Of a DNA stretch of 64,000 nucleotides, positions 1-59,323 are shown in pieces. Made by a program: the position numbers and the translations under genes. The DNA lies in assembly GCA_008632985.1 (NCBI GenBank), contig QPGO01000004.1, forward strand, positions 1 to 64,000. The letters are read 5' to 3'. The stretch is from Psammoneis japonica. Taxonomy: Eukaryota. The notes under the pieces are model-generated. The model was not told the DNA's origin and did no database searches. It saw only the letters and a program-made list of their open reading frames with translations. How positions within the stretch are numbered: position 1 is the first letter of the stretch; each line of letters opens with the position of its first letter.

Positions 1-2285
1 AGTCCGGCAGTCGGTCTGGTTGTCTGTCTGAATTTGAAAGTGTGTCCCTTGGATTTTGGAATGGCACATGGGTTGTTTGGCATGAGTGAACTCATTTTCT
101 GTTGGCGATCATTGACATTTTAATTGCCGCACAATTTTGCTGCGGAGCTCGCACGTAGAAGTCTACAGGCCCAATGTCACACGGATTCCCACCTGCGTCT
201 GGAACGCATCTGGAGACTTCCCCCAATGCGATCCCCAATGCATCATAAAATGCAGTGCAGCTGTTTCTCCCACACAATTTTTTTGTTGCCAAGCGGCTGT
301 CGACAATGGCCCCAACAAGTCAGAACCAGCCACAACAGAGAAAAGGGTTGCATGCATGGCACTGGTTCCAGATCTGTTAGAAAGAAAGACAGAGCAACTG
401 CTCAGAAAGCAAAAAAAGATGCAAGGTCAACAGCAGAACCCAAAACAAAAGGAAAAAAATGATGAGCCACCTCTGAATGATGCCGCCAACATGCATGTCA
501 TTGACGCTGTTCAAAAAGACACTGCACAAAAACATCCAGAGGACAAAGAAAGTCATCACCAGTGCAAAACAACTGATTTGAACAAGTCTGCAATGTTGGG
601 AAAGCGCGCTGATTGTGAGTCCAAAATGCTTCAAAACCTTGCACAAATCTTTGGAGCAGATTCTGCCGGCTTGACAACAAGGTCAATTTGTTCAATTGCT
701 TGCCAACTGACAGCATGCTTTTTCTAACTTCTCATGTGTTGATGGCATCAAAGCAAGCGCCATTGGGTGCAGTGCATTTGTGGATGAAGGCGGTGCTGTG
801 GTCGTGAAAGGAAGAAAAAACACTTGCGTCACAACGGAGAACATGAAAAGTCAAAACAACAGGAATGGTTTGCACTTGCCAAACAACACACTGTTCCAAG
901 GGAGACATTCTTGAACATCATTGGAGGCATCACAACAGCAACTGGGAATGCTGGATTGGTGGACAAAAGGGGTGCTGCAGCCGGGAAAGGTCACCAGATT
1001 TGGAAGCAGCAGCAACAAGATTTGCCCGGATGTTGAATTTTCGAGGAGCAGCAACATGAAGTGTGCAAGGCTTGGAGACAAAGCCACTGTTCAGAAGAAA
1101 ATGAAGCTGCAAACAAATTCACAAAGAACCAACAGAGCCAGAAGCCCACTGCAGAACAAAAGAGAAAGGCAGAAGAAAAATGTCAGTGACAAAGGATGAC
1201 AACAAGGTAAAAAGAGACTGGTTTGCATTGCCAACGCACCAATGAAGAGTCACAAGTCATTGGCATGCCAGCATTTGGCTTGCCGCCAGCAAAAAAAAAG
1301 GACTTTTGGTTTAAAAAAAATGGGTGGGGGGCCCTGCTGCAATGCTCTGCCCACTGAGACATGACAAACCCTCAGATGATGGCAATTTTGCTTTGCCCAG
1401 CTGTGCACACTGAGTTTGCTGCCTGAAGAGCCAGGGGTGTGTGTGTGTGTGGGGGGGGGGGGGGTGACCGGCTTGCCATGGGCGCATGGTGAGCTCAGAT
1501 TCACGAGGATGCCATGAGCCAAGACTGTGCATGGCCTCTTGCACGTGGCAGCACAGCATTGCCAACACACACCTGGGAAGCACAGCCACAGGAGGGCATG
1601 GCTCCATGTCTCAGACAATCTAGAAGGATGCTAAGAGAGCACCCGTGAAAAGCACTCTAACCTGTTGTCTGGCCCACAACAGCAGTGTGATTCCACACGA
1701 TGACATCTCTCGCACACAGCGCGTGATGGTGTGATTCACACGATCCATGATGCAAGCGCATGATCGATTGGCACAATCCAAAATGCAAACAAACAGGAAT
1801 TTGGCAAGATTCCCTGTTCACATGATTCCATTTCTCTGCACATGAACCAGCTCACAATTGACACATCTGCATTTTTCGTCGCCCGCTGCATGCGCACAGG
1901 GGGCACAGCAAGTCTCAATCCAGGGGGTCGCAAGTTGCTTGGTTGCTCAACTTTTTTGCCAAAGCTGAGACTTTCTTGTCCCACAGCCAGGGCATGGGCC
2001 AAGTCATTGGTGTGGCACACAGGAGGAGATGGGACCATGTGGTTGCTGTTCTCTGCATTGCCACATCTTGGGGGGGGGGGACAATTTGCGCAGGGTTGTT
2101 CAGCCAGAATCTTCCAACATTCAAGGTTTCCATTGATGGTGACAAAATCCCACATCTCATTTTCTTTGCTGAAAGCATCGGAAGGTTTGGACTCGATTCA
2201 TCGTTGTGCGTTTGCGTTGCTTGTGACGAGACTGCCATTGAAATTCTTTTTCGAGGGTTGGCACATTGGCACGCGTTGAGTGTGT
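1..2285. mobile_element. Degenerate repeat/TE relic block (family not identifiable)
   Basis: TpA nearly absent, CpG low, CA/TG rich; only spurious Cys/His/Gln-rich ORFs; same composition as identified TE relics elsewhere in the window. Confidence 0.55.
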
Positions 2286-2703
2286 GCTGCTATGGGTGGG
2301 GACGCCGTAGAAATCACGTAGATGCTATTTTTTTAGAAAAATCAACCTCTTTGCCCAGATGGACCATGGCGGTCGTCGACGTCGTGACAAAAAAAAAGTG
2401 TCATCATCACGATTCATAAGACTCAACGTGCGGTCACAACGCGCAAGGCCGGGCTTCCAACTCCCGCCACACAGCGCCACAGCCTTCGCTAAGCGACAAC
2501 CAAATCAACCTACAATTTCTCACCAAATGGCTTTCGTACCCTCAGGATCATTATAAAAAGTTGTACTTTTGTTACCATAGTGTCCGCCGTCATCGAATTA
2601 GGCGGGGTGGTCAGAAGTACAACTTTTGACGGCAATCTCATCGAGTATTTTTGAAGTTTCCACGATCACCCACATGTCGCGTCCGAGTTTGGTGTAGGAG
2701 ACA

Positions 2704-2860
2704 ATGGCGCCTTTTGTAACTTTCAGTGTGGGTGGTATGGAGTATCAGACGTCTCCGATGGAGTGCTTGGATACATTGAAGCAAAGAACGGTGAGCCCTT
2801 TCTCAAGATTGGCGTTGGAGTGCTGGAAAAAGGAAGCGCTACGAATGCGATTCTTCTGAG
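2704..2860 (+). pseudogene. BTB/POZ (KCTD-like) gene fragment inside the TIR element
   Basis: Manual translation MAPFVTFSVGGMEYQTS...FSRLALECWKK resembles the VxFNVGGxxY...LARL start of BTB/T1 domains; then stops. Confidence 0.45.
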
Positions 2861-4287
2861 GATTATAAATTCAATTCTCCGTATGCTGTTGCAGAAGAGC
2901 CAATCTGGACCATAGAGCAGGCGGGCAGTTCTGTATTAATGCGTCTGGACAAAATGACGATCAACTGGAGGAAGTTTATGCGGACGAAGGCTACTGTCAC
3001 CGACATTATCTTGGTGTTCAAGAACCTATTCACCACAGAGCAGAGCGATGGGCTGGGAATGAAATGAGCATACCCAGTGACCTCAAACCGTCACCGTCAT
3101 TGGAGGAAATCTAAGATATTATTGATGCTGATAATATAGTGGTAAGGAGACGATGCAACTAATCTGAAAAGTGTGCCACCTTTCAGCTCACCACCGTCTC
3201 CGCATTACCGCTCTCGACTCAAATGCAGATTTCAAGATGATAAAGACGCGAGATTGGCCGAGGAACTTAGTGATATCTTGTCTGACTTGCTGGAGCTCGA
3301 CTACTGGTCAAAGGAAACATTGAGCACTGTAGTTGATGTGCTCACTTCAGCAAATAGTACCGATATCGGGCTCTCCAGGTGTGTAGAGCTTTGAATGGGC
3401 TTGTGCGAAGTTTATGTTTGACAGTGTGCCTTGATTGACTACCAATATTATTTCTAACCTCAGGTGATCTCAATATCTCTAGTAATGCCAATGAGGGGTA
3501 TCCCGTTTATCTACCGGAAAGAGATGATGCTACCTTCTGGATAGACAAACTGGGTGACAGAAGTTTTCCCAATGTTTAAAAGCTTTGGAACAGATTTAGT
3601 ATGCCCATCTGGAAATGCCCTAAAATTAGAATGCTACGGTAAGACTAGGGCCTACTCGTACCACCAACAAAAATACAGAACAAGCAGCTGGTAAATTCAA
3701 AATTGGAGATTCTTCTGCTTAGTGTAATTAGTACGGTATGGTCGGTAGACTACAGAGTACTAGTCTCGCTAGTAGGTACTACTCTACTCAGCGATCGAGA
3801 GAAGGAGGAAGGAGAAGAATGGTTTTTGAATTTGGTACTCTATCTCTACTGTACTGTAGAGTAGTAGTGTAGTAGGAACTACCGTACCACTCTGTGGCCG
3901 GCTCGGATTGGAAAGAGCAATCTTTCGGAGCAAAACGTGGAAGACTTGAATGAAGAGCAAATCCTCCATTTGTTTGTAAAGGTTTATGTGCAGACGTACC
4001 TTGAAGAGAAGCGTGAGGCAAATAAAAAGTCTGCTACATTCATTTGACACGCCAATGCAGTCGCCCGTGGCTTTCTTGGCGAAAAGCAAGGAAAACGCAA
4101 CAGCCGATGTCGCGGAGAGACCAGGAGGAGGATTCAGACTTTGAAATTGAAGAGGATGAATGGGAAGAGTCAGACTATTACTCTAGGCAGTATTGTAGAA
4201 AGGAGAAAGACTGTATAGAGTCGAATATGTTTGTAAATGGGACTTAGTATCCGCAAAATAGGCGTGTAATTTGTGCTCGGCAGATTT

Positions 4288-4720: not shown

Positions 4721-5078
4721 TGGCGGTCACTTCATCGCCATCAATGTCGACGAATACAAGGCCAATGAAAAAGTTACCCCCCATTCTAAGCACCTCTGAA
4801 CACCCTCTATCGACTAAGGTAACTCTCGTTTCGATCCAAGGAAATTCGTTTCTACGTGATTTCTACGGCGTCCCCTCCCATAGCTGCCGACTGTTGCGAC
4901 TGATTATTGATGGATGGACAGACTGACTTAGAGAAACATGGTGCGTGACGTGATAATACCAAGGAAACCGTAGAACCTACGCCAGAGCAAAAACGCATGC
5001 AAAGTTCTGCATGAAAGATGCAGATGGGCTTCGCACTGTCAATGATGCTCTCGCTGCTTGTTTCACGAATAACGCACA

Positions 5079-6974
5079 ATGAGTCGTTACCACAGCGGAC
5101 CACCGACCATGGCAGAAGATGATGGCGACGACATGTGTGACAGACGTGGCAAGAAGGACAAACGAACTGTTGAAGAAGCAGTGATGGATCAAGCGGCTCA
5201 AGATCATCAAGCTCGCAGATGGCAGAGAAAGCTTCGTCAACAGCAGCTTCGTCAAGAACGATCTCATCCCCAACTAGTAGATGTGTCGGACCTAGAAGAG
5301 AGTATTGATGTGCCAGTCTCTGCCATGTCTGGTGCTTTTGCAGTCTATGATGAAGGGGACGTTCGACGACGTGGGCGAAACGATGACTTGACTGTCGTTT
5401 CTGGTGTGGAGTCTGATCAATTGGATTCTGTCATGCCACCGCCAGAGCAAAACGACAGCACTCTACATGTTGAGGACGCTCAACCAACAGGCGATTTCGT
5501 TGGTCGTTTTCGACAAGGTGAAATCAGTCGAATGGTTCAGGAGGAGAATGCTCGCCTTCAACAATCCCTTGCCCATGCTGAGGTTGCTCAAGCTGTCCCG
5601 GTATCCACGAACGACAATGATCAAAACGATGAGGAAAGGATAGAAGAAAAGAGAGAAAGACGGAAACGCTATCTTATTTATGGAATTGTAATGCTGGTGA
5701 TTGTTCTGGTTGCAGCAGTCGCGATTGGAGTTCCAGTTGCAATCATGAGCAACAACAAGAATGACACTCCTGCTCCCACTCCATCTCCGACTAGCTCTAT
5801 CGTTCCTCTCCCGAATACGCTGTGGCGACCCGTTGGTCAAGTTTTGAATGGGAGAGACTCGTTTGATTTCTTTGGGGAATCTGTAGCCTTATCGCACGAT
5901 GGCGGTGTTGTGGCTGTTGGGGCAGAGCAAGCTTCGGACCCAGGGTACGTTGCCGTGTTTCGATTGGATCGATCTAGACAAGAGTGGGCACAAATAGGTG
6001 AAGACTTGGTTGGAGAAGCTGATGGTGACGAATTTGGTGAATCGGTGGCATTGAATGGAGATGGCAATATAGTTGCGATTGGAGCTGACAACAATGGCAG
6101 CGGCGGGACAGGTTCTGGTCATGTTCGTGTTTACGGATACAACAACGCCTTCGACACTTGGACCCAAATAGGCAATGGCATTGATGGACTAGCAGCTGGC
6201 GATAGATTTGGCGCCTCTGTATCTCTTTCAGACTCGGGAACCATTCTTGCCGTTGGGGCTTCTGGTGAAGACACGGACGGTGGCGACAATTCTGGATCGG
6301 TTCGTATATTCAAATACGACGCAGGGTCATGGGAGCAACTCGGACAGGCACTCACCGGCCAATCTGTTAATGATCAAGTCGGCGTATCAGTTTCTTTGAG
6401 CAGCTCGGGGACAATAATTTGTGTTGGATCAAGTGGAAATGATGTGTCGGTGTACGAATACAATTCTGAATCGTCATTGTGGGATCCAAAAGGTAACTCA
6501 GCGAACGGAAGAATCAGTATCGATTCGTATGGGTCTGCTGTTTCTCTTGATGACAGCGGTTCCGTTATGGCCGTGGGATCACCTTTTAGCGGCGAAAGGG
6601 TGTTAATCTTTGCTTACGATCGTGCATCTTTGACGTGGAAACAAAGAGGTCAAACTCTAGAGACGCAACAGGAGGGCGATGCCTTTGGCTCTTCAGTGGC
6701 TTTGAGCGGAAACGGGCATGTCGTGGCAGTAGGAAGTTTTCGGTACAATATCAAAACTCGAGAAGACGTGGGCCAAGTTTCAGTCTTTCAGTTTGACACA
6801 AGCACAGAGAGCTGGGTTGAGGTGGGCAAACGATTAAATGGTGCCTCTAGGCGTGATACTTTTGGAAATTCCGTATCATTGTCTGTCGACGGCAGTGTGC
6901 TTGGAGTGGGAGCAAGGAATCGCGATCTAAACGGCGACGACAAAGGGTCCGCATATATTTTCACCGTCTTGTAG
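5079..6974 (+). CDS. Single-pass membrane protein with C-terminal FG-GAP-like beta-propeller
   Basis: 631-aa ORF (start may be the Met at 5109); TM YLIYGIVMLVIVLVAAVAIGVPVAI after a basic cluster; P/T stalk; ~7 repeats FGxSVxLSxDGxxxAVGA. Confidence 0.9.
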   Translation: MSRYHSGPPTMAEDDGDDMCDRRGKKDKRTVEEAVMDQAAQDHQARRWQRKLRQQQLRQERSHPQLVDVSDLEESIDVPVSAMSGAFAVYDEGDVRRRGRNDDLTVVSGVESDQLDSVMPPPEQNDSTLHVEDAQPTGDFVGRFRQGEISRMVQEENARLQQSLAHAEVAQAVPVSTNDNDQNDEERIEEKRERRKRYLIYGIVMLVIVLVAAVAIGVPVAIMSNNKNDTPAPTPSPTSSIVPLPNTLWRPVGQVLNGRDSFDFFGESVALSHDGGVVAVGAEQASDPGYVAVFRLDRSRQEWAQIGEDLVGEADGDEFGESVALNGDGNIVAIGADNNGSGGTGSGHVRVYGYNNAFDTWTQIGNGIDGLAAGDRFGASVSLSDSGTILAVGASGEDTDGGDNSGSVRIFKYDAGSWEQLGQALTGQSVNDQVGVSVSLSSSGTIICVGSSGNDVSVYEYNSESSLWDPKGNSANGRISIDSYGSAVSLDDSGSVMAVGSPFSGERVLIFAYDRASLTWKQRGQTLETQQEGDAFGSSVALSGNGHVVAVGSFRYNIKTREDVGQVSVFQFDTSTESWVEVGKRLNGASRRDTFGNSVSLSVDGSVLGVGARNRDLNGDDKGSAYIFTVL

Positions 6975-7489: not shown

Positions 7490-8368
7490 CTATGGCCACG
7501 TGACAATGACGGTGATATTGTCAAAACTTCCACGAATCAACGCCTCCTTACAAAGTTTGTGAGCAATCTCGTCTTTATCCATACCCTGAGCTTTCCAATT
7601 CCACACCAAATTGACAGCTTCTTGATCCTGCAAGACATCCCACAGTCCATCACAGGCAATAATCAAAAAGTCACTCTCGTCCTCTTCCCAGTCCCTCTGG
7701 GTATACGACACGAACGGCTTGGCAATGACAAATTTCTTCAATCCGTAGTCCCCCAAACTCCTCGCCACAGCCAGCACTCCCAAGACTCGTCCCTTCAATA
7801 CAAAACCACCCGCTTGCTCAATTCGTTTGACTTCATCCGTGTCGTCGGCACGGTGATCGTGTGTCAAGCGTTTGGCTCGGCCCGCACAACTCCCATACGT
7901 TATACGTGCGTCTCCGGCATTGGCGGAGTGAATGGCGGTGCACACAAATCTGGACTGCTCCTCATTCAGCTCGTATTCTAACAAACACAAGGCGACTGTT
8001 GCACCCGACGTTTCTATTCCAGCCTTGACATGACTGCAAATGTCGGTCAGCAAAAAACTGCGTTCGAGTTTTTCCTTCATGCTACTGTCATCATCATCGA
8101 CAGACAATTCTTGCTTGACGACGTGATGAAGGGTCGCGTGCAGGTAATCACAAATTTCACGTCCCCCGTGGCCGTCGTAAACTGCCAAGAGACTGTACTT
8201 TTTCGTAATGCCATTCTTATCCACAATCGTTACCAAGTCGGGTTGAATCATGTAGGCGTCCTCCATGGTGGAACGTTTGGTTGGATTCATTTCTTCTGCA
8301 ACCCCATACATCAACTCGGGCAGTGACGGCATTGACATTACTTCTGAAGACGTCGGAGATGACGACAT
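7490..8368 (-). CDS. Protein phosphatase 2C (PPM family)
   Basis: Motifs RSTMEDA, VYDGHGG, SGAT, ANAGDAR, DHRA, GVLAVARSLGD, IIACDGLWD, GSFDNITV; first in-frame ATG at 8368. Confidence 0.95.
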   Translation of the reverse strand: MSSSPTSSEVMSMPSLPELMYGVAEEMNPTKRSTMEDAYMIQPDLVTIVDKNGITKKYSLLAVYDGHGGREICDYLHATLHHVVKQELSVDDDDSSMKEKLERSFLLTDICSHVKAGIETSGATVALCLLEYELNEEQSRFVCTAIHSANAGDARITYGSCAGRAKRLTHDHRADDTDEVKRIEQAGGFVLKGRVLGVLAVARSLGDYGLKKFVIAKPFVSYTQRDWEEDESDFLIIACDGLWDVLQDQEAVNLVWNWKAQGMDKDEIAHKLCKEALIRGSFDNITVIVTWP

Positions 8369-8591
8369 TGATGATGACACAAGAATTATGACCGATTGAC
8401 TCAAGATGCTGATGAGGGTCGAAGGAGAGGAGATGGTATTTGTTTGGTACAGTAGAGCGACAGCAGCGGCGGTTTGTCTTTGTTGTTGTCTCTCGCTCTC
8501 TCTTCATCGTTTTTGGTGCGCTTCGAGGGTGGCGCGTCGCGGCGCGCGATTGGCGAAGATTCAAAAATTGCAACAATGACTGGGACATCTA

Positions 8592-8753
8592 TGCAGTGTC
8601 TCGCACCTTATTTTTCTGATATATAGTATTAATGAACCTATTAGATATAACGGAAGCCGTTGTAACGGGCGTCGCTGAAAGCGACCCTCGTTACCTCGGT
8701 CTTTCGCTCACAATTTTGTTATCACTGAAGTCTTTATCTCGTTAGACCTTGCA
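8592..8753 (+). repeat. 5' LTR
   Basis: Aligns without gaps to 13719-13880 with 19 substitutions. Confidence 0.97.
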
Positions 8754-8782
8754 CTGTAATTACAGTCGATTCAAAGAACTGA

Positions 8783-8998
8783 ATGGAGACTAGGAACAAT
8801 ACAAACAAATTAACTAAACGTGAGAAAAGAGAACTACGCACAAGAGCAGCAGTTTGGGCTGTTGAGCACCAGAAACAAGCACAACAACGTAAACGACACG
8901 AACAGAATTTGGCGAGCCGAGTGCATCATTTGGAGTCAAAGGTAGAGTCCCTGGAGAGGACTATTGAACAATTGTATTCCCTTTTTCATGATGAGTGA
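8783..8998 (+). CDS. Small coiled-coil ORF upstream of gag, inside the element
   Basis: 71-aa ORF with heptad-like C-terminus; overlaps the likely gag ATG (8988/8991). Confidence 0.4.
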   Translation: METRNNTNKLTKREKRELRTRAAVWAVEHQKQAQQRKRHEQNLASRVHHLESKVESLERTIEQLYSLFHDE

Positions 8999-10209
8999 AT
9001 CGTTGAAGGAGCCTTGCATTGGCCATGAAGCCAAATTTGAGCATTCTGACTTGGAGGAAGTGAAATTTGACCCAATCGCATGATGACGGTAGCACTCGTA
9101 CAAAAAAGTGTCCGCGTTTTGATGGCACTCATGGCATTGAAGCATTGTCATTCGTTGAGGATCGTTTTCGTAAAATTGCTGTGAAATTGGAGTGCACCAC
9201 TGGCGAGGAGTTGTTCGAAAATTTCGAGGAAGTGCTTGCGGATGCTGCAGAGGACAAGTGGGCGAACTTGACCAATGCAATTGACGATGCCGATAAAACT
9301 GTCGAGCGTTTTGATCAGGAAATCAATCGTTTTTACTTGTCTTATTGTGACAATGAAGCGCGTGATGCGATGATTGAACATTTGCCAACTTTGAAAAAAC
9401 CATTCAAATCTGAAGTGCAGGCGCATGCAGATCGCATGGAAACCTTGATTCGGTGCTCCAACAAACTTCCAGGAAACACTCCTCAAGTCAACGAAGCTCA
9501 GAAGAAAAAGATGATGTTCGACAGCTTTCCTCGTCCGTGGCGTGAGATGTGTGCTCGAGCAGGACGAGCGACAGCAAACGACACTCTCGCTGAGATCATC
9601 AGTTGCATGAACAACGAGAAATCTTTTGCTGATGAGAGCAGCAACAAGAAGCAGGACAAGAAGAGGAAAAGCAACAGTGCTTCGTCTCAAGCTTCAAGAC
9701 GCTCTCGTGGCAACAGTGGTGGAATGGATCCAGAATCTAGATGCCCGGTGCATGCGAATCACGACCACAAGTGGAAGGATTGCATTTTGAATCCAGAAAG
9801 CCAAAACTGTCGACCGAGGTCCGACCGTGGCGGTCGTAGCGGAGGTTGTGGTGGAGGCCGAGGAAACTGCCAAGGTGGAGGACCCCAAGGTCAAGGCGGT
9901 CGTGGCAACTTCCAAGGTCGAGGACGTGGCAATTGTGGCAATCAAGGAGGACATGGAGGCCGAGGTTACGGCGGTTGCAATGACTCCCAGAATTCTCAAG
10001 GGAATGGATCCCACCACCAAAATCAAAACGGCACCCAAGCCAACGGTGACACCCAAGGCTGTGGAAATCCGGCTGGAGCAGCTCCTCCTGGTGGTTGGCA
10101 AATGGAGTCGCACCATTTTGATCAAGGAGGGCCTCGTGAGATGCGAGGTGGAAATGGATGCGATCAGAACGGTCGCACCCATCAAGGCCAACGAAGTTGG
10201 CGTAATTGA
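8991..10209 (+). pseudogene. gag: gag (frameshift near 9065)
   Basis: CPVHxxxxHxWxxC zinc-knuckle-like motif, RGG-rich tail, position upstream of the protease. Confidence 0.8.
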
Positions 10210-13200
10210 CAAGGGACGGAAGTGCCCGAGTCAGAGCGTGTCGCTCAATCTTTTTATGTTTTGCGTGATCGTGAAGAAAACATGTGTTTTAATGTTGATG
10301 ACAATGTGGGAGACCTGATGGAATCTTGCGCTGTGAATGAAGAAAAATTGGGCGGCGTTTTGGAGTGCGCTGTGCCAACCCCCAAAACTGCGACTCCCAA
10401 ACCATTGAATGTGGTGCCAACGACGTTGATGGTGGCGCGTGCCATTCAAAATCAAGAGAGCAAGCGAGTGTCACGAGTGCCATTGGATTCAGGAGGTGCT
10501 GACACTCTTGTTCATTCTCGAGTTTTGCCGAAGGGAGCGAATCCAACCATGAACGATGAAGGACGGTTGAGCTTTCAGACGGTGGCCGGACGACATGAAT
10601 CCTCCCGATGCGTCATTATGAAGGACTTGACATTGCCAGAATTTGACAAGTCAAAACAAGTCAACAGCATTGCGGCTCAAGTTTTTGATGCCCCATGCAA
10701 GTGTGATTTAATTTTGGGACAAGACTTTTTGTCGAAAGCCGGAATCGTGCTTGATTTTCGATTTGGAATGATAAGTGGTTGGAAACATCAATCCCAATGA
10801 AGCAATCCAATCATTGGAACTCAGTTCAGAATTGGTTGGATGCACTGGAAGACGACGGAGAGGACGAAGACGATGAGGAAGCCTTCGGACAATCTTTTAT
10901 GATGGACGCCAAATGCGAGAAAGTGTCATCCGCGAAAGTGGCGCAAGCTCAAACTCACTTAACTCAAGAACAATGTGACAAGCTACAGGCTGTGCTTGAA
11001 AAGCATGAAACCCTCTTTGATGGAATGCTTGGCAAACATCCGCATGAGACTGTTCACTTGGAAGTTGATCCCAACGCTGTTCCCTTCCATTCCAAGGCTC
11101 ACGAAGCATCCAAGAGGGATGAAGCCGTTTTTAAGAAAGAACTGCAACATCTGTGTAATGTTGGCGCACTGGAACCAGTGGGACCAACTGAATGGGCAGC
11201 CGGAACTTTTGTAACTCCCAAAAAGGATGGACGAGTTCGATGGGCATCCGATTTTCGAGAGTTGAACAAGGTGCTCAAACAAAAGGTCTATCCTCTGCCG
11301 ATCATTCAAGACGTCACTCACCGACGCTCGGGATACAAGCACTTGACCAAGTTGGACCTCACCATGTTTTATTGTCATGTCGAGCTTGACGAAGAATCCA
11401 AGGATTTGTGTGCTGTTGTCACTCCGTTTGGAAAATTTCGACATTGTCGATTGGCCATGGGTTTGAAAACCTCTCCCGACATTGCTCAAGCCATCATTGA
11501 AAAAGTGACTAGAAGAGAACAATCTGAAAATTAACCCACTCAAGTGCGAATGGTGTGTCCAAGAGACGGATTTTTTAGGCCATTGGCTCACGCCTGCAGG
11601 AGTCCGACCGTGGAAGAAGAAAGTGGAAGCGGTGCTACGAATGCAACCACCTAAAACTGTGACGCAACTACGATCGTTTATCGGTGCGGTAACTTATTGT
11701 CGCAACATGTGGCCTCGTCGCTCACACGTGCTCGCTCCACTCACGAAGTTGACAGGCAAGAGCAAGTTGGAATGGACCCCTGAATGTCAACGAGCCTTTG
11801 AAGATATGAAAACCTTGATGCTGGACGACACCCTTTGGGTCTACCCGAATCATAACAAGCCATTCCACATTTGTGCTGACTCTTCGGACTATCAGATGGG
11901 AGCCGCAATTATGCAAGACGGGAAACCAGTGGCTTGCTGGTCCCGGAAACTCAGCGCAGCACAACAGAACTACTCTACGATTGAAAAAGAATTGTTGGCG
12001 GTGGTAATGTGCTTCAAAGAATTTCGAAGCATGTCATTTGGAGCTGACTGCACTGTTTTTACGGATCATAAAAAATCTCACCTTTCGCACGCTCAATTCT
12101 CAACGAGTTCTTAGGTGGCGACTCTTCTTGGAAGATTTTGCCCCAACTTTCGAATACGTTGATGGCAAAGATAATCTCTTGGCGGATTGTTTTTCAAGAT
12201 TGCTGCGTATGGACCCTCCTACGGAAGGGAAGTGTGCTCCTAACAAGGGCAAGCTGATTGATTTTAAGACGATCGACCCTGCTGTGCCACCGCATGAAGA
12301 AGAACTGGACGACCAAAACAGTGTGTCTCATTTTTCCTATCGTCGTGAAGAACCATCTCCATTTTATTCTTCTGTCGTGGACGACCCCGAATTGTGTGAA
12401 TCATTTTTGAACTATCCTTCTCTCGAGGAAATGCAAAACCCTGCAACTGTGCAACGAATTCAAGAATGCCAATTCGTCGACGTGGAGCTGAACAACATGC
12501 GACAACAACATCCAGAACGCTTCGTTGTGGAACATGTGAATCAGCGTCCTGTAATTTGTTGTCGTGCTTGACCGAATGATCCTCCGACTGCGTGGAAAAT
12601 TTGTGTTCCAACGGCGTTGCTGCATGACATCATACGATGGCATCGTGGGATTTTGGGACATGCAGGAGTGCACCGAATGCATTCCACTGTTGGCACACAT
12701 TTCTGTCATCCTGCCCTTCGTCAATCCTGTGAAAGATTTCATTGTGCTGATTGTCAACGTTTGAAAACTTTAGGCCCTGGACATGGGGACCCACCTGAAC
12801 GACAAGCGCCTTCATTGCCATGGACGGAAGTTGCGGTTGACCTCATCGGTCCCTGGAAAATTGAAATTCAAAACCATGAAATCGAATTCAACGCTTTGAC
12901 TTGCATTGATGCCGTTTCGAATGTGACTGAACTCATTCGCATCGACAACAAAACCTCGTCTCACATTGCTCAACAATTTGAAAATTGTTGGTTGTCTCGT
13001 CATCCTCGTCCCAGCCGGTGCATCCATGACAATGGTGGAGAATTCATTGGAGAGGACTTTCAATTGTTGTTGCAACGAGCAGGAGTGGAAGACGCTCCGA
13101 CTGCGTCGCGAAATCCACAAGCCAATGCGGCATGCGAGCGCATGCATCAAACTGTTGGAAATGTCTTACGCACTTTGCTTCATGTTTGTCCTCCACAGAA

Positions 13201-13606
13201 TGTTGAGCAGGCCAATCAACTGGTGGACAATGCATTGGCAACCGCCATGCATGCAATGCGATGTGCGGTTTCTCGTGCTCTCAAGATTTCACCCGGTGCC
13301 ATGGTTTTTCAACGTGACATGATTCTTGACTTGCCAGTCCCAGCCGATCTTGCCACCATTCAAGAACACCGACAAGCGATCATCAATGCGAATCTCCGTC
13401 GAGCCAACGCTGAACGCCGATCCTGCGATTTTCAAGTTGGCGGACAAGTTCCACTCAAGGCTGTCGACCCAACCAAGCTCGAGCCACGAGCTCACGGTCC
13501 ATGTCCTGTCATTCAAGCACACGCCAACGGTGCACTTGCGGTCCAACGTGCACCTCATGTAACAGAACGATTGAACACACGTCGCGTCGTGCCGCATCAC
13601 ACCTGA
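10210..13606 (+). pseudogene. pol: pol: aspartic protease, RT, RNase H, integrase (frameshifts, a stop, internal deletion)
   Basis: LDSG and DLILGQDFL (PR); PKKDGRVR..DFRELNK, VYPLP, TPFGKF (RT); [23 protein letters not shown] (RH); HHCC, VDLIGP, DNGGEF, NPQAN..ER (IN). Confidence 0.95.
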
Positions 13607-13718
13607 GGTTGAGGGTTTTCTCCCCAACATTTGGGTTTCCCTTCCATCCTCATCCATTGGAATTTAAATTTTTTGAGTCCCGCATGATTCTCGACACTCG
13701 AATCATGGAAGGGAAGAG

Positions 13719-13880
13719 TGCAGTGTCTCGCACCTCATTTTTCTGATGTGCAGTGTTGACGAACCTGTTGGATGTGACGGAAGCCGTTGCAACGGGCTTC
13801 GCTGAAAGCGACCCTCGTCACCTCGGTCTTTCACTCACAAATTTGTTGTCACTGAAGTCTTTGTCTCGTCAGACCTTGCA
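13719..13880 (+). repeat. 3' LTR (contains no TpA)
   Basis: Preceded by the PPT, followed by the TSD. Confidence 0.97.
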
Positions 13881-14899
13881 ATCTAGAGCAGAGGGCCACG
13901 TGCCTTTCTACATTCGTCTTTTCCACATTGAAATCACGTGGGGCCCCATGCTTGCAGAAGTGGCGGCATTTTGGAAAAATGCAAGACTGAAACGCATTTT
14001 GGAGTTGTCGGACGAACCACATTGGTGTGGTGTGATGTGTCCGTCATCATCACATTCACGAGAAATGTGCAAACAATGTGTTCCCTCAGCATGCAAAACC
14101 TTTGCGGTGATGACGGCATGCCACAGTGGAAAACCCACAGGCTCAGATGTTCAACCTGAGCCTGTGGAAAACCAACTGCAGTGCAGGACGCACTTGATTT
14201 TCTGGAGATGTGTGGGGGGGGGGTCTGACCCTGCTGAGCATGTTCCTGCTCAGCTTGTCCCAGCCTTGTTTGTGCAATCTTGCAAACACACAAATTGTGG
14301 ACAAAAGAGACATTGGTGCCTTCACAGCAAGCTCTCAAGCAGTGGAGTTTTGCCATTTTTAAAATGTCAGGTTCCCCTCTGCCTCTGTGTGTGTGTGCTC
14401 CAAAAAGTCAGCATGGCAAGCTCTTTTGCACACCTCCATTGCCCAGTGCATGCCTTGGCTCAATTGGGTGGAATGTTTCAGAGTGGACACCATGTGTGAC
14501 TGATCCCCTGGCATTGTGAAAAACACCAGTGGCTCCATGTTTGTCAACGTTCCTGACAATGACGTGCATGTTGAGCTGCGCACTTTGATTGTGTGGAGAA
14601 ACAAGGATGATCTGCTCCACCAGCCAAAGCCACTCTGCCGCCCCCAGCAGACAACATTGACTCCTGCAGCCTGTTTGACCCAGTCCAGTAGAATGGTCCT
14701 GGGCAGCAACTCACTTGGGAGTGCACATGGCCCCTTTGGCTCTCCAACTTTGCTTCTTCGAGTGTGCAGTGGACGCCACAATGTCATGTGCAGGAGAGGG
14801 CATGGCTTTTCACTGCTCTGCTTTGACCCACCAGTGCAACTCTTCATTGGCAACTCTCCAGATTGAGCAGAACAATTGAAAAGAAAAGAGGGGGGTGGC

Positions 14900-16500
14900 C
14901 CATCGGGATCTGTGCTGCCAACAGATTGTGAGCAACATTTTGGCTTTCATGGCTGCTGCCTCACACAAGATTGATCCAGGCAATCTGGCTTCAGTCTTTG
15001 TGGGGAGTTGTCAACACACACTGTTTTCTCAACCAATTTGTGTTTGTCAAATTTGGGCAGTGAGAATTGAACGGTGCATTGACCATCAGTGGCAAAGAGC
15101 CCACCCTTGGTTTCCCAAGTCTTGGTGGCAAATTTCTCATTTCTCGTGGTGTTCTGCTGTCAAGAAGGAAGTGCAGTGGCTTGCTTTTCTCCTTTTCCAA
15201 GGAAGCATTCATGCAAGCAATGACTGCTGGACTGGTGTGGATTGTTTTTGCCCTTTTTCCAGGCTTTCTAACATCCAGTGACACACAAGACTCCTCGAGC
15301 AGTGACAGTCATTCTTCGGAATCGATCTTCTCAAATTGACACCAGTTTTCCTCACTGAAGGCATCAGAGTCATGTTCCTTGCTGTTGCACTTTGAATTCT
15401 TTGCATTGGAAGTCATCTAAAGAGAATTGTTGACCACCTGTTTGATCATGGCATTCAATTCCTCTTGCTTTTGGAGTGGCATTTTCAGCATGGTGACAAG
15501 ACCACATGTGATTGCCGCTGGTGCATTGCCATTTCAAGTTGCGTTCAGCATTCTCTCAGTGTTCATTTGCCAGTCATTCAATGACCCAGCACTGATCTGT
15601 GTTGCAAGTGTTTTTCTTGAGATGATTGCACCCCTCATCAGATTCAGACACCATTTGGCGCCAGATGGATGACCACCATTTTTGGAGCTGTTTCTGGAGC
15701 CACTTTTGGTTTTGGAACCAGGCTTGCCTTCATTGTCATCCTTGACATAAATTTGGTTGAACATGTCCTCTGCAACCTCCAGACATTCCAAAAATTCAAC
15801 CAACTTGTCAAAGGCATGATCCACAATTTCAAAACCTTGTGGGGTTGACTGACGATGCCACTTGTGAGGTGCAAGGTTGCAGACAACATCCTTGAGCCCA
15901 TCTTTGTCCAGATTCTGGTCAGATTTGCAGGGAGGATAGAACTTGAAATCTTTGTTGACCTCCTGAGCCCATGCAGCAATTTCTCGGATCTTCGTTGAGT
16001 CTGGCTTCTTGAGATCATGACACAGGTGTTGTCTCTGATTCTGAAGTGCATTCTTTGGGAAAACACAAGTGGCTTGAGAGATGATGCAGGCACTTTTTTG
16101 AAGGCTCCTTCAGCTTCTTCTTCAATGTGCATTTCCTTGTTCTCAAAAAACTTGCAGAACATCTCCCTGCAACAACACATGCATCATGCGGAACTTGCCA
16201 GCTTGCTCCATGACATTCTGTCCAATCAAATTTTTGTGCAGTTCTTCAGAAATTTGATGCACTTTGGAACTCCCTGCTTGTTGCAGCACTTGATGTTGAT
16301 TGTGCAGGTGCAGCTCTTCTTGTCTCCAGGATGAAAACACTGCTCCATCTTCATGTGCTGGCTCAGTTTGAGAGTCTTTGGCTTGGAAATCAACTCCAGC
16401 GGTTGAGGTGCAATCTTGTCCTGCTTGACTGTGGACTTGCTGTTGGCTGCATGAGATGAAAGCTTCATTTTTGTGCTTTTGCCTTCTGTGGTGTGTGTGC
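14900..16500 (-). pseudogene. Degenerate gypsy-like gag/protease remnant
   Basis: DKLVEFLECLEVAE (gag-like) followed downstream by KPLHFLLDS (protease-like); heavily decayed. Confidence 0.45.
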
Positions 16501-16714
16501 ACAATGCACTGTGCTTGAAGAACAAGCACAAATGAAAGCAGAGCAAATCACAAAAAGTAGAAAATTGTGAGATTAGATTCTGTGCTGAGATTTTGGGATT
16601 CTCTGAAGGAGCCCTCGATGGCCTGAAGCCATCATGCTGCTCCTGCAGAGCAAAGACCGTGACAACAGATTGTCCAGATGTGATCAACATTGACATTTTG
16701 TGAGTCAACATCTT

Positions 16715-16985
16715 CTGTCAATTGCACCCGCAATTTTAGACTTCAGATCAATTCTGTGTGATCAATCTGACCGTCGCATGCATCCACAATTGTTGCGCAA
16801 TTGACACGTGCAACAATGTGCAATTGCAAACATGATGTGCAATTTTGTCTGCCAATTGCATCTGCAATTTTAGACTTCCGATCAATTCTGTGTGATTGAT
16901 CCAACCATCGTGTGCATCCACAATTGTTGCATGATTGACATTTGGAACAATCTGCAATTGTGAACATGCACAATTTTGTCTGCTT
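16715..16985. repeat. Tandem duplication, ~134-bp unit x2
   Basis: caattttagacttc.gatcaattctgtgtgat at 16731 and 16865. Confidence 0.85.
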
Positions 16986-19002
16986 GGCAATGCATGCTGC
17001 ACATGTGTGTGTGTGTGTGTGTGTGATCATTGTCACATTCACAAGAAATGTGTGCACAATGCATGCCCTCAGCATGCAAAACCTTTGTGGCAATGATGAT
17101 GAGACACCACAGAACTGCTCAAACCAAAACCAGCACTCTGTGGATGGCAAGTGTGGCATTTGATTTTCTTGTGTGTTGCCTGCTGGTTGTCTTTTGCCAA
17201 GGCAGGTTGCCACAGTCCAGACTCCAATGGGGTGGGGTGACCCACAACTGTGTGGCTGATCCCAGCAACACAGAAAACACCAGCACTGCCTTGTTTGTCA
17301 AAACACATCTGCCAATGTGCTTTGTGCTTGGGGCCGCTGCTTCTTTTGGCACAGGAATGATGGTGTGATCTCTGTCAAGGCCACTCACCCAGCAGGCAAA
17401 ATGCCAGTCATCAAGCAGCATTTTTGCCTCTGATGGCTTCCAGGCCCATCCACCTTCTTTTCTTGACTGTCTTTCCACATCTGCTTCTTGGAATGCACAA
17501 ACAATGGCACTGCCACAAGAATTTGTGCTGGAGGAGAGGGAGCACATTCCCAAATGATGAGGCTTGCTGGCACACTCTTTTTTGGACACACCAGCTGGGT
17601 GGGATGATGGCCTCATTGCTGTCCATTCAATGTGGCAGAGGGATGTGGCCATGGCATTGTCCCAGAGGAGCAATGCCAACTTGTGCCAACAAGCAATCAG
17701 TTGTTGAATCACAAGAGTGACCAATGCTGCAGGCAGGAACAGGTGCCTGTGATGACTTCCTTGATGGCTGTGGGCACAAGACCAAGAGAAGAGCAAGCAG
17801 GATGACAGCATGCAGCATCAAGCCATTCGTCATTTGCCCCAAGTGAACACTGATGAAAGAAACATGTCAAGGGTGATGAGCACACACTCTTGCATTTTGG
17901 TGGGATTCCAGGCATGGTGCATGGCCAAAAAAAAACTCACATTCATGGGTGCACTTGATGGACATGAAGAGGGATGCAGGACATGATGGAAAAGCACATT
18001 GGTCTGAATGAGTCCAACACTGTAGAACTGATCATCATCTTAGTTGCTTTTGTTGCGCTGACATTTCTGCTTGTTTGGGGGTCTGTTGCAGCAGCAGGTT
18101 CAGATCTGCTCTCCATCTCCCATCACACACTTGTTGTTGCTGCTCTGCTTTCACCAGCCACCAGCATGATCGTCCTTTGGCAACCCTCCACATTGAATGG
18201 CACATCATTGAAAAGAAGAAGAGGGGGAGGGCCCATTGGAACCTCTGCTGTCAACATGATTGTGGGCACCATTTTCAGCTTTCACGGTGGCTGTTTTGTT
18301 CATGATTGATCCAGGCATTGTCAATCCACCAGCTGTGGTCTTTGGTGGGAGCGATCAGCACAGTGAGGATTTTTGTGATGGACATTAACACTTTGTTGAA
18401 GGCTCTTCCACAGCATGCCTACGGACACTGCCACTCATTGCTGTCAGTGGTGTTGGCAGCAATTGTCGGTGGTGTTTGCTGCGTGTGGGCTGTTGTACGA
18501 AAGTGCAGTCATACCTGCCTCTTTGGACATTGCATTGCTCTAGCAGAGAGGTGGAGAGATCTAGTTACATTGTAGAGTGCGGCAGTAGCTGCAAAAGAAA
18601 TGCTCGGTTCGAATGTCATTTCGCTGCTCTAGAACAATGGGAAGAAAAGCGCAAATGTGTGATTTGAAATTCAAATTTTCAACCTAAGCAATGTGAAGAT
18701 ACTTCAATGCTCTCCACGAACTTGGTGGACCCTGATGGACCTGCCATTAACTATGATCTATGGGATGCGTTGCAACTATTAAATTGCTTCAAGTAGCGTG
18801 AGCAATGTTGTGACGATGCACTTCAACTCTATGTGAACATAAAGCGCTGGACTCACTTGTGGATTCTGTAGCATTTCTTGATAAAGCACGACTCTGCTAG
18901 AGAGCCGAAAGTGTCCATATTTGCATTGAGAACGCCGTTCAGAAGAGAATTTCAAACACGTTCCTAGCACTGAATGCACCGGCTACTTTTCCTGGTAACT
19001 GA

Positions 19003-20036: not shown

Positions 20037-22659
20037 CGGTAATTTTCAGAAAAGCAGCACGGAACAAGATTGTCCGGATGGCGCACAAGGGAAAAATCGA
20101 GACGCAGCAATGGTGTTGGTAAGTGCGACATGCTTGGTGACAAGACATAGTGCAAATAGAGTTCACAGAAGAAGCGGAATGCACATAGTTCGTCGACAGA
20201 AATTTCGTTGTTGAAAACTTCAACGTTGCTCGTCGCTCGCCCTTCTCGTGTCACAGGCGTCGTTCAACCCAAAGCAATCCGGTTGTCTCACCGCATCCCT
20301 CCATCACCGGACGACGTCTAGCTGAAGCAAAGCATAATGTCGTGAGCGTGAAAAGAACGTACTTTTACCTCCATGGTCTTCCGTGGAACTTTCAGAGCTC
20401 TTGTTGGTGCTGTTTGAGTTTGTGGCTGGTTCTGGCGTCGCAGAGTGAGTGACCTAAGGGTGAGGAGATTGATTCAACCTACAAACACGTTGTTTTCGCC
20501 ACTCTTCAATATTTTCTTGCCTCAACTGCTTGTTCCCGGCGTCTGTTTTTGTTTTTTAAACTGCGACGAAAGGCGTTTACCAGGCCCTGAACATGAACCG
20601 CGTGTTGGTCTTGCAAGACTGACGAATCATCTGAGACGACTCCTCCAGACTATCCAAGACTGATTCTTGCTCGTTGTCCCCGCCCGCCCTCGTCGCGCTT
20701 TCACGCACGCGGGGCCCGCTACATTTTTCAGTTCACTTGTCCGTCGATTTTTTTAATTAGGGGACCTCCCTCCGAGGCTGAATCTTTCAATCCGCCGATT
20801 GCCGCCATGAGAACCGTGGAGCGCCACTGGCAAAAGATGCCACAGCCATGACGACGATGAACACCGGCATTGCAGTGACCCTCGGGCCTTCCGACTTCAT
20901 CGGCCGCATTGGATGGGGTGATGTTGAGTCTCGAGAAGTCAAGAAAGCCTTGGATGGGAGGAAGTTCACGACAGCAAAAAAGAAACAGCTTCTCATTCAA
21001 CCCAAATTGTGGCGGAACTTCGCACAGTCGCTTTGAGTTGACATCGGGCGAGGTTGATCCGCACATTGCTCAACCCGAGGAAGTGACAAAGGAAATGCCC
21101 AATCTCTCAAGAAGCAACATCAGTGGATCAATTTGCAGCGAATGGCAGACACATGAACGATTGCTCGTCGAAACAAAATCCAAAATGCACAACCACCTTT
21201 GAGTTGGCTTTGCCAATTTTCACACTGTTGCAAAAAATCCTCCAAGATGTTGGCGGGACAACGTGCGCATTCGTCCATGTCTCTGAAGGTCAGCTCTGTG
21301 GTGCGAATTGGTTGATTTTGAACGCAGAAGTTGGAAAGGTGCAAGGCGTTTTGTGTGCACGCAGTGAACAAAAACTCAAGCACCAACTCACCAGTTTGCT
21401 GTTGACTGTGCTCTTTTCTCTTTCTACGCTGATCACAGTCACACATGACTTTTGCTGCAAACTGCTCAAATTCCAGTGTCTCTTGAGTGGTGTCTTCGAG
21501 CACTCCAGTCCCATGGATGCCCTCAAAATTTCGGTGCCGGCCCTCTGGTGCTGGCATCTGGCAGAATTCGCTGCTCTGCACTGTGCTCTCCAATCTCCCC
21601 GCTGCCCTCTTTCAAGTCACCTGGGGCCCTGTCAGCGCAAGCTCATCATGAAGGCGCTCGCTCCCGCACTGTGTTTCCGTGTGTCGGCGTGGCTGTTGTT
21701 GTGCTGGGAGAGTCTCGTCCTCTGAAAAAGACAGAAAATCAAAGGATGCTGCTGCTCAGTCACTCAAGAAGGGATCAGTCACTGTGCTCTGGCATTCTGC
21801 GCAAAGAATTTGGATTGAACTCACTTGTGCTTCCAAAGCAAAACCAATGGAGAATGGAGAATGTGCATCTGGAGAAAAATGAGTGCATGGGGAGGACTGT
21901 CTCTATCCTGTTCCAAGCCAAACATGGAAAAGGAGCTTGGGAGGAGACCACAAGGACCCAAGGCCTGGTGCTTTTGTTGCCATGGGGTCAGAAGCAGCAG
22001 CCATGGCAATGATCAGTCCAAGTTGCCGTCGAAACAAGAGACCTTCCAACTGTTGGCATGAAAAGCCTCTTGGAGAATGTTTGCAGCTTGTGAGTTGTGT
22101 TCTTTGAGATCTGTTGTTCACAAGAAAACATGGGTGGCAAATGATGTCATGCAAGCACTCCTTCAACCTTTTCTAATCCAGTCACATTGGACAAGCTCCC
22201 GCCCTTGCAATGCATGGGCTCTTTTGTTGCCCGTGTGCCAACTCTCATGACAAGTGTTTTTTGCCAATTCCGCACGTGGTTTCTCCATCGACTGAGTGCC
22301 CGATCGGCCGGACACTGTTCAGTCTTTGTTGTTCTCTTGCCAACAACATTCATTCCCAGTGAGAAAACGTTGTGAACGAATCATTCACAAGTCTCTTGAG
22401 TGCGGAGCCCTCGGCTTCTCACAACTGCACCGCGTCGGTGCACGGTCGTTGCAGGGGGGCGCGTTCTTGCATCATTCTGCACTTTTCCATTCATTGTTCT
22501 TTGCAGCAGTGCTCCACATCATCATGTGCACCACTGCATCATGCGACACCAATGCCAAAGTGGCCAGTTTGCTCCACATGATGGCAGATGGGTGGTCATG
22601 GTGTGTTTTGCCGTGTGAATCTTGAATCTCACGTGGCTTGTCGGATTGAAACATTTCAA

Positions 22660-30290: not shown

Positions 30291-30562
30291 AGGGGTCAGG
30301 GAGGTCCCATAAATAAAAAAATCGACGGACAAGTGATCTGAAAAATGTAGCGGAACAACACGTAGAATTCTACACCCGTACATAAATAGGAACCACGATT
30401 CACACGACTCACCCGTGTCAGCAATTTTGAATCTTCACATGAACTCACATTTTAGAAAAAGCCTGGATGCGATTCCAGAGGAGTTCTCATTGTTATTTGC
30501 ATCAACCACAACAACTCGAAAAAGACAATAGTCGACCACATATTGTGTCAACAGATCCATCT

Positions 30563-38506: not shown

Positions 38507-38699
38507 GGTGATGTGTGAAAATGCCTTTTTCTTGTGTGTGATGATGGGTGGTGGTGCGTGGCGTAAAAAAATGGCGAATGCAAGTGCCGCACCGAGAGTG
38601 CCGCAGGCAGTCCCAAGTCTCTGAGTCTTCGTCATGCGCAGACAAAAACTCACGGCGCGCCAACATTTTCATCAGGGCCAGCGTTGACTTGACGCACTG

Positions 38700-58974: not shown

Positions 58975-59323
58975 GGCACGGATGTTCTTCTATATCTCAC
59001 ACTGTTTCTCAACAGCTGCACTCGGTCCCACTTGAAGAAGAATGAGAGAAGCGTGTCATGAAGATGCGCTTCTGCTCAGTCGCTTTGTCGTGGCGGCTTC
59101 CTGCCTGCGCCCGCCGCCAGCGCACTCGCACGATTGCCGAATTCGCGGCTTCTGCAAACTCCAAAACGCGCATCATCCAATGCGCGAGCAAGCGCGAGAG
59201 CTTTTTGAAATTTTGCGTGTCACGCACATTTTTCACAATCAGATTCTTTGACTTCCATCTTCAATCTTTGAACGAACACAACACTCAACATCGCAAGAAC
59301 CAAAAAGCAGGATCAGATAGACC

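Follow-up and report, generated by a model that had tools for sequence, protein, structure and literature searches.

TpA-to-TpG/CpA conversion of a Ty3/gypsy retrotransposon after its integration into the genome of the diatom Psammoneis japonica

Introduction

TpA-targeted hypermutation of integrated viral DNA has been described in a rhizarian, the chlorarachniophyte Bigelowiella natans (Mettrop et al. 2026, bioRxiv 10.64898/2026.01.13.699255). According to the available part of that preprint, 210 of 211 and 20 of 20 de novo mutations in mutation-accumulation lines were A>G or T>C, all of them at TpA, and two integrated viral regions mutate ~1000-fold faster than the rest of the genome; its authors propose an ADAT2-like adenine deaminase, which is unproven there. 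Here we describe TpA hypermutation in a new lineage and on long terminal repeat (LTR) retrotransposons, a kind of process first described only months earlier in B. natans. The locus is a Ty3/gypsy element at positions 8592-13880 of a 64,000-nucleotide stretch of the diatom Psammoneis japonica (positions 1 to 64,000 of contig QPGO01000004.1, assembly GCA_008632985.1; hereafter the window).

As far as the preprint text at hand goes, the points of likeness between the two systems are changes that are nearly only A>G or T>C and fall on TpA, with TpG or CpA as the product depending on strand, their restriction to foreign DNA, a long-term loss of TpA with a gain of CpA and TpG in clusters of 1-kb windows, and an enrichment of TpA-poor coding sequences for reverse-transcriptase and DDE domains. 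In the same partial account, the host is a rhizarian and the word 'diatom' does not occur; the proof is de novo mutation in culture, whereas it is historical here (LTR asymmetry and tyrosine columns); and the viral regions retain many TpA (Rho 0.45), whereas none of 15 is left in the mutated LTR and older blocks have 0 TA per kb. Two features of the present locus, its link to CpG decay and the escape of one LTR, were not met in that account. No report of TpA>TpG/CpA change or of another repeat-directed point mutator in a diatom was found in the literature searched.

Other known systems share parts of this behavior. Repeat-induced point mutation (RIP), known from Neurospora and other ascomycetes, likewise acts on DNA, makes transitions at specific dinucleotides, damages repeated or foreign sequence where it stands and leaves domains of distinct composition in blocks. 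However, RIP turns CpA/TpG into TpA with stop codons and pairs duplicated sequence, whereas TpA became CpA/TpG here, no stops can arise in this way, and two identical LTRs had opposite fates. As an explanation of this locus, fungal RIP (C>T at CpA, TpA excess, stops) was rejected: the direction is the opposite, and TAA and TAG are depleted rather than enriched. APOBEC3 proteins, acting on vertebrate retroviruses and LTR retrotransposons, also disable retroelements by deaminase-type hypermutation with a context-specific transition signature in integrated copies. They cause plus-strand G>A changes through C>U on the minus-strand cDNA before integration, strand-asymmetrically and with stops (TGG>TAG/TGA), in contrast to A>G/T>C on both strands after integration in this element. 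Finally, deamination of 5-methylcytosine at CpG yields the same TpG/CpA products and is seen in older blocks of the window (CG observed/expected ratio, o/e, down to 0.03), but it targets CpG and not TpA, and the young element has a CG o/e of 0.94 with a TA o/e of 0.18. In diatoms, methylation of transposons is documented, and the methyltransferase DNMT4, which has no assigned function, is a relative of the RIP enzyme RID (both according to the part of PMC9998398 available to us); that analysis of diatom DNA methyltransferases brings up RIP solely in connection with DNMT4.

Results

Conserved tyrosines of Pol have become cysteine and histidine

An earlier note on this sequence had claimed that TA is ancestral in the element and that tyrosines had been lost to Cys and His. 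It started from an integrase open reading frame (ORF) of 329 aa without Tyr; the absence of Tyr is correct, and the frame has 344 codons from stop to stop, with 0 Tyr, 13 Cys and 22 His. Relatives contain 3.55% Tyr on average (120 proteins), which puts the chance of finding 0 Tyr in 344 residues at 4e-6. For Pol, 70 intact relatives of 1000-1300 aa were aligned with the five Pol frame pieces of the window, and columns with at least 60% agreement were scored. At 25 Tyr columns (one of them in the overlap between two frame pieces and therefore counted twice), the window keeps Tyr in 8 and has Cys in 8 (all TGY), His in 7 (all CAY) and Phe in 2. Consensus Gly (37 of 39), Pro (42 of 48) and Arg (34 of 38) are mostly kept; Ile is kept in 14 of 33 columns, with 12 changed to Val, and Thr in 20 of 30, with 6 changed to Ala.

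Each Pol motif quoted in the earlier note is present and aligned to Tyr or Leu in the majority line of the 70 intact relatives. The window has PVACWSRKL for PVAY.SrKL, ICADSSDYQ for iYTDASDYQ, PFGKFRHCRL for PfGky.Y.RL, WLSRHPRP for WL.RYPrP and GPC for GPy, and a counterpart of AVnYYRdmWP was located as well. The reading of Leu as Pro in RVPLDSG and QVPLK is also borne out (PLDSG against L.DsG, and GQVPLK against Gq.Vl.K). For the RGG tail of Gag (GGCGG, GNCQ), former Tyr could not be verified, as the low-complexity tails of the relatives have no position-by-position alignment.

As a control, each of the 70 relatives was scored against the other 69. The window has 15 Tyr>Cys/His replacements (control mean 0.47, maximum 2), and 44 of its 113 mismatches are of the type expected from TA loss, namely Y>C/H, L>P/S, V>A, I>V/T/M, T>A, K>E, N>D and M>V (control mean 6.0, maximum 12). 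Reverse replacements are at background, with 8 in the window and a control mean of 7.5. The excess predicted in the earlier note is thus present and runs in one direction. The pattern is also not shared by intact relatives, since 143 of 144 have no Cys at 21 conserved Tyr columns; a Cys/His pattern like that of the window was found in none of the 144 scored proteins, a set ranked by similarity and biased against mutated copies. One relative, P0004, covers 9 of the Tyr columns, with Cys at one and His at another, and has a low overall Tyr content (1.5%). Cys is raised (3.3-3.6%) in this protein and also in P0416 (Tyr 0.8%) and P0425 (0.3%), two relatives of a second retroelement of the window described below; these metagenome- or run-derived sequences may be hypermutated copies in other organisms. 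At the DNA level, TA o/e is 0.18 over 9000-13880, against a median of 0.77 (range 0.45-0.99) in 80 metagenome loci encoding relatives.

TA is therefore the ancestral state, since relatives carry Tyr, encoded only by TAY, where the window has TGY or CAY, and the LTR pair differs at 15 TA sites, with the TA-bearing 5' LTR standing outside the depleted zone. The opposite direction, in which the TA steps of the 5' LTR arose from CpA/TpG by C>T changes of the RIP kind and the TA-poor state is the older one, draws on the fact that an LTR comparison alone cannot be polarised. Nevertheless, Tyr occupies 15 conserved columns, in up to 99-100% of the 70 relatives, and TA o/e is ordinary, not enriched, in the 5' LTR (1.14) and in the DNA of relatives (0.45-0.99), against 0.18 in the TA-poor element. 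This explanation has next to no chance of being right, and for the coding region the Tyr columns and the leave-one-out control refute it.

The changes are specific to TpA and affect both strands

Base changes were counted at conserved columns where one unambiguous single-base path leads from the consensus residue to the codon of the window (77 paths). A>G accounts for 26 paths, 19 of them after T, and T>C for 17, of which 16 lie before A; 9 are G>A, with 6 after C (CpG decay), and the remaining single-base kinds together make up 25. With Tyr left out, T still stands before 11 of 18 A>G changes (p 0.0012), and A stands behind 9 of 10 T>C changes (p 6e-5). A>G or T>C thus make up 43 of 77 paths against a divergence background of ~40%, and the LTR pair shows the same direction in 16 of its 19 differences (A/G or T/C). 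TA>TG and TA>CA occur 19 and 16 times in coding DNA and 10 and 5 times in the LTR; since the two products are similar in number, both strands were struck. The base at +1 of the converted sites is T in 21, C in 14, A in 10 and G in 5 of 50 cases, from which no conclusion is drawn because the set was chosen through amino-acid changes. TTA/TAA contexts are over-represented among the surviving TA of 9000-13880 (38%, compared with 19% in TA-normal DNA; a small sample with a biased comparison set), and this excess may reflect a context resistance of the process.

Slow neutral decay, through GC-biased gene conversion or general TA avoidance and with no special mutator, would fit the observation that TA is mildly under-represented everywhere, including host-gene DNA of the window (o/e ~0.5-0.9). 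But GC-biased conversion would lift A/T>G/C in all contexts, and 35 of the 43 such changes sit at TpA, while AA, AT and TT steps show no depletion. Moreover, the LTRs have only 4 non-TA differences against 15 at TA, the insertion is still polymorphic (see below), and CpG is intact in the element, all of which makes this explanation extremely unlikely.

The counts bear on chemistry as well. Enzymatic deamination of an adenine preceded by T, yielding inosine that is then read as G, is a tentative candidate. DNA A-to-I activity has been reported for amphioxus ADAT2 (PMC10354150, seen in part). Alternatively, thymine rather than adenine may be hit: a modified T at TpA in silenced DNA, such as 5-hydroxymethyluracil, could mispair with G or be misrepaired, giving T>C before A. 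In dinoflagellates, 5-hydroxymethyluracil is reported to replace thymine preferentially in TpA and TpC. With 16 T>C before A and 19 A>G after T, the struck base of the step cannot be distinguished, since TpA is its own reverse complement and the two routes give an identical sequence outcome. However, no evidence for such a base in diatoms emerged here, and the group that measured the TpA signature proposes ADAT2-like adenine deamination, itself putative (bioRxiv 10.64898/2026.01.13.699255, in its available part). The thymine route is therefore unlikely, and adenine deamination remains the more plausible chemistry.

Asymmetric LTRs place the change in DNA after integration

At the moment of integration, an LTR retrotransposon has two LTRs of the same sequence. 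In this element they share 88.3% identity (self-BLAST) and differ at 19 of 162 positions, 15 of which are TA in the 5' LTR and TG (10) or CA (5) in the 3' LTR. The 5' LTR contains 15 TA and the 3' LTR none, that is, 15 of 15 sites were converted, and the four other differences are two CpG transitions and two transversions. Taken with the direction given by tyrosine, this asymmetry means that the 3' LTR lost all of its TA in DNA, after integration. The change thus took place at the DNA level and on both strands of the integrated copy. Because CpG is intact where TA is depleted, the TpA process is separable from CpG decay and has been faster here.

Retroelements pass through an RNA stage, and A-to-I editing of the element RNA by an ADAR/ADAT-like enzyme, followed by reverse transcription and integration of the edited copy, would therefore be conceivable; ADAT/TadA-type editing enzymes are said to prefer a 5' U. 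Both LTRs, however, are copied from the same RNA segments and should match at integration, but they differ at 15 TA sites. Editing of sense RNA would give TA>TG only, yet TA>CA accounts for 16 of 35 coding and 5 of 15 LTR changes, and the depletion extends into flanking DNA outside the element that is also present at the empty site. The LTR asymmetry and the two-strand pattern rule out simple RNA editing before reverse transcription, and RNA editing in any form is very unlikely. Pre-integration hypermutation of the ADAR/ADAT or APOBEC type was rejected in the same way, as neither the expected strand asymmetry nor identical LTRs were found.

The gypsy family is multi-copy and the affected blocks all look repeat-derived, yet the identical LTRs fared oppositely, so homology alone is probably not the guide. 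The insertion point lies ~220 bp upstream of the first in-frame Met of a PP2C phosphatase ORF, and from this arrangement we infer that the spared 5' end may owe its state to promoter-proximal protection by the PP2C gene.

An empty allele in a separate public run

One contig of a public run (X1) joins position 8591 to 13890, that is, it carries an empty site with a single ATCTA, behind which 2 different letters take the place of the 4 at 13886-13889 of the window. This makes the insertion polymorphic; its LTRs carry 15 TA changes against 4 other differences. Two further runs, X2 and X3, covered almost nothing of the stretch. Matching ATCTA duplications on both sides of the element identify a single insertion event. 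The degraded flank at 13886-18300 stands beside the empty site as well, where X1 contigs reproduce its TA/CG-free sequence at 99.3-99.95% (10 other letters in 1352 over 13890-15241, and 1 in 2134 over 16867-19000), so the flank depletion is not peculiar to this assembly. Among the single-copy differences listed between the window and the other allele in this flank, those at 13940, 13964, 14580, 14690 and 18057 comprise two TA/TG and three CG against TG/CA, which hints that both processes are still generating polymorphism. Inside the element, word depth in X1 is ~1700-4000, against 53 in the flank, and many diverged family copies are present. These differ from the window by 283 transitions (A>G 82, T>C 56, G>A 69, C>T 76) and 59 transversions; among those listed, the differences are a mix of TA/TG/CA sites, CG/TG/CA sites and ordinary family variation.

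Long-read data are known to contain systematic miscalls where motifs are modified, and a dense base modification in silenced DNA could have made a long-read caller read TA as TG or CA. The sharp block edges described below would fit modification domains, and the element's own copy is not seen in X1. On the other hand, the separate contigs reproduce the depleted flank, the differences between the X1 family copies and the window are chiefly transitions running both ways, and host genes of the same window are intact. An artefact of assembly or base calling is accordingly a most improbable source of the pattern.

TA-poor blocks of the window coincide with repeats

The window is eukaryotic nuclear DNA. 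A Pfam scan found FG-GAP repeat genes, a PP2C phosphatase, a protein kinase, a Myb ORF and eIF3c, and the closest named relatives of eIF3c are all from diatoms (Phaeodactylum 71%, Amphora 69%, Thalassiosira 68%; best match overall 79%). TA counts per 200 bp divide the window into TA-normal DNA and five TA-poor blocks (1-2200, ~9000-18300, 20800-30200, 38600-42000 and 43600-49000), which have sharp edges at a resolution of ~200 bp and make up ~45% of the window. Comparison of the block map with the Pfam map revealed that TA-normal DNA holds every recognisable host gene and that the TA-poor blocks contain reverse transcriptase of retroelements or nothing recognisable. TA loss is thus confined to foreign or repeated DNA, and host genes are spared.

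The same TpA process marks all other repeat blocks of the window, and in the older ones CpG>TpG/CpA decay has been added to it. In the older block next to the element, CG o/e is 0.03-0.23 per kb over 14001-18000 and 0.38 at 13886-14400. CpG is nearly gone in two further blocks too, where TG and CA reach ~2x expectation. No Pfam family was found in 10 scanned ORFs of the relic beside the element, and no match of the old TA/CG-free blocks to either retroelement family of the window or to any Pfam family was found. The kilobase stretches 17001-18000, 41001-42000 and 47001-48000 are extreme, with 0-4 TA, a CG o/e of 0.03 and TG plus CA at ~2x expected; both self-complementary steps, TA and CG, have been funnelled to TG/CA, and no protein or repeat family is recognisable in these stretches.

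A tandem FG-GAP/beta-propeller gene family (53607-63458 on the minus strand and 5073-6971 on the plus strand), with 63-70% mutual DNA identity, stands in TA-normal DNA, and host-gene repetition at this divergence has not attracted the TpA process. At 32253-38054 on the minus strand, one ORF of 1934 codons contains six Myb repeats, its internal repeats being ~68-70% identical, and the plus-strand AT skew falls to -0.29.

Structure of the element and of a second retroelement

The feature at 8592-13880 is a complete Ty3/gypsy LTR retrotransposon and a dead copy (Table 1). It has direct LTRs with TG...CA ends and a short target duplication, its Pol follows the order protease, reverse transcriptase, RNase H and integrase, and relatives of 1000-1300 aa align over all pieces. 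Gag matches the N-terminal parts of long relatives (for example P0122 at 7e-39, BLASTP). The protease region has no match in a Pfam search; in tblastn, P0001 covers 10255-10773. The reverse transcriptase lies in a different frame from the protease piece because of a frameshift near 10772, and most X1 family copies have one extra base behind 10772; most of them also lack one base at 12070, near a further frame change. An RT_RNaseH domain is present in Pol as well (Pfam). The integrase matches to rve (2.4e-7) and Integrase_H2C2 (1.5e-4) are both just below the Pfam cut-offs, and the integrase has 350 relatives at E<=1e-3 (best 8e-156); the named relatives of Pol are from Nitzschia. Autonomous coding capacity is not intact: the frame changes near 10772, 11520 and 12070, in-frame TGA codons stand at 10207 and 12569, and 15 conserved Tyr are replaced.

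Table 1. Coordinates of the element, its parts and neighboring features in the window.
Feature	Position	Strand	Characteristics	Basis
PP2C phosphatase gene	7493-8503	minus		
5' target-site duplication	8587-8591		ATCTA, repeated at 13881-13885	X1 contig joins 8591 to 13890
5' LTR	8592-8753	+	162 bp, TG...CA ends, unmutated, 15 TA, TA o/e 1.14	self-BLAST and alignment
5' untranslated leader	8754-9063	+	partly spared, TA o/e 0.46	
Gag frame	9064-10209	+	RGG-rich tail, Tyr 0.8%, Cys 3.9%, TA o/e 0.14, TGA end	BLASTP
Protease region	10210-10800	+	DSG motif PLDSG (relatives L.DsG), TA o/e 0.12	tblastn
Reverse transcriptase	10755-11534	+	TA o/e 0.21	Pfam RVT_1, 2.2e-10
RNase H	11509-12114	+	least converted part, TA o/e 0.47	Pfam RT_RNaseH_2, 1.4e-27
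Linker preceding integrase	12008-12571	+	in-frame TGA end, TA o/e 0.30	
Integrase	12572-13606	+	zinc finger and core, 0 Tyr, TA o/e 0.06, CG o/e 1.01	Pfam and relatives
Polypurine tract	13707-13718	+	GGAAGGGAAGAG, abuts 3' LTR	read from sequence
3' LTR	13719-13880	+	162 bp, 0 TA, TA o/e 0.00	
3' target-site duplication	13881-13885		ATCTA, own TA retained	
Older repeat relic	13886-18300		unrecognisable, TA and CG both nearly gone (TA 0-2, CG 0-3 per 200 bp over most of it)	
Second, unrelated retroelement	22819-27067	-	Tyr 0.4%, inside TA-poor block 20800-30200	Pfam RVT_1; extent by tblastn

The second retroelement shows the same loss of tyrosine, with 0.4% Tyr against 0.3-3.8% in 35 relatives and none of 3 conserved Tyr kept (2 are His, CAC, and 1 is Cys, TGC). 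Its block has an extreme plus-strand skew over 22000-30200 (G ~44%, C ~13%, GC skew up to +0.57, with A and T nearly balanced). The element, which bears a reverse transcriptase on the minus strand, is Pro-rich, and its relatives are Pro-rich too, so part of the skew is a family trait. Transitions alone cannot produce such G-richness.

Consequences for coding sequences

The claim of the earlier note that proteins are disabled by removal of tyrosines rather than by stops is correct. TA>TG/CA changes make no TAA, TAG or new TGA and erase TAA and TAG. TA-normal DNA has 13.9-18.1 of these two stops per kb (both strands, TAA plus TAG), and the TA-poor blocks have 1.8-6.9; TGA in the TA-poor blocks stays at 17.5-25.7 per kb of both strands. 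This erasure results in many long meaningless ORFs in all six frames of the TA-poor blocks. With TGA as nearly the sole stop left, ORFs of 130-800 codons occur there on both strands, for example in an overlapping set at 23700-30300. At the protein level, Tyr codons, the only sense codons starting with TA, become Cys or His, and ATA, CTA, TTA and GTA codons as well as T|A codon junctions yield Ile>Val/Thr/Met, Leu>Pro/Ser, Val>Ala, Thr>Ala and Lys>Glu. The element is thus crippled by missense changes while its frames still look open.

Discussion

Taken together, the locus is best explained by a local, post-integration conversion of TpA to TpG/CpA in the DNA of a young gypsy insertion, and we consider it quite likely that a targeted TpA mutator of the B. 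natans kind, possibly acting by adenine deamination, was responsible. A full-length Ty3/gypsy element inserted beside an old degraded repeat and upstream of the PP2C gene. After integration, TpA became TpG/CpA over most of the element by A>G after T on either strand, which equals T>C before A. The reach was local, taking all TA of the 3' LTR, nearly all of the integrase and about half in reverse transcriptase and RNase H, and leaving the 5' LTR near the host gene untouched. The process is also regional and runs on into adjoining repeats. By analogy with the process measured in Bigelowiella natans, it may be an active, targeted and defence-like mutator. No deaminase family was found to be encoded in the window in Pfam scans of its ORFs.

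Several points weigh against this interpretation. The element's own letters are without independent read support, since X1 represents the empty allele and shows only the flank and other family copies, and the library type of X1 is not on record. Only the LTR changes are strictly tied to the site, and some internal changes could come from an already mutated source copy. The conversion is patchy, with no smooth gradient (TA o/e 0.14, 0.12, 0.21, 0.47, 0.30 and 0.06 from Gag to integrase), and in 7 of the 26 A>G paths the preceding base is not T. It could also be that the whole element was mutated and its 5' end later gene-converted from an intact copy, a less economical account than the sparing of one end. 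Finally, none of the 80 environmental loci encoding relatives is hypermutated (minimum TA o/e 0.45), in a set ranked by similarity that favours intact copies, and generality among diatoms is thus not shown.

The locus adds a second, distant lineage to the TpA>TpG/CpA signature measured in 2026 in one rhizarian. One mutated and one unmutated LTR form an internal clock that dates the event to DNA after integration, and the process is distinct from and faster than CpG decay and appears to halt at a host promoter. The findings also matter in practice. With TAA and TAG erased, long reading frames stay open in hypermutated elements, and gene callers will predict spurious proteins from them. In such genomes, insertion ages estimated from LTR divergence will be far off; the LTRs of this element show an apparent divergence of 12%, of which 9% is TA-specific. 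Tyr-poor and Cys/His-rich 'Pol' proteins together with TA-free blocks offer an easy way of marking silenced DNA across a whole genome. Should the enzyme prove to be a natural DNA adenine deaminase preferring TA, it would be of interest to base editing.

Diatoms are major marine primary producers and laboratory models of algal epigenetics. It is possible, at close to even chances but somewhat below them, that they have an active, chromatin-guided TpA mutator of silenced foreign DNA, working by adenine deamination or other rewriting, that is the same system as in Bigelowiella and an old defence of the stramenopile-alveolate-rhizarian lineage. If so, a shared TpA mutator would be a functional mirror of fungal RIP, acting within the lifetime of an insertion polymorphism, outrunning CpG decay and killing elements by missense.

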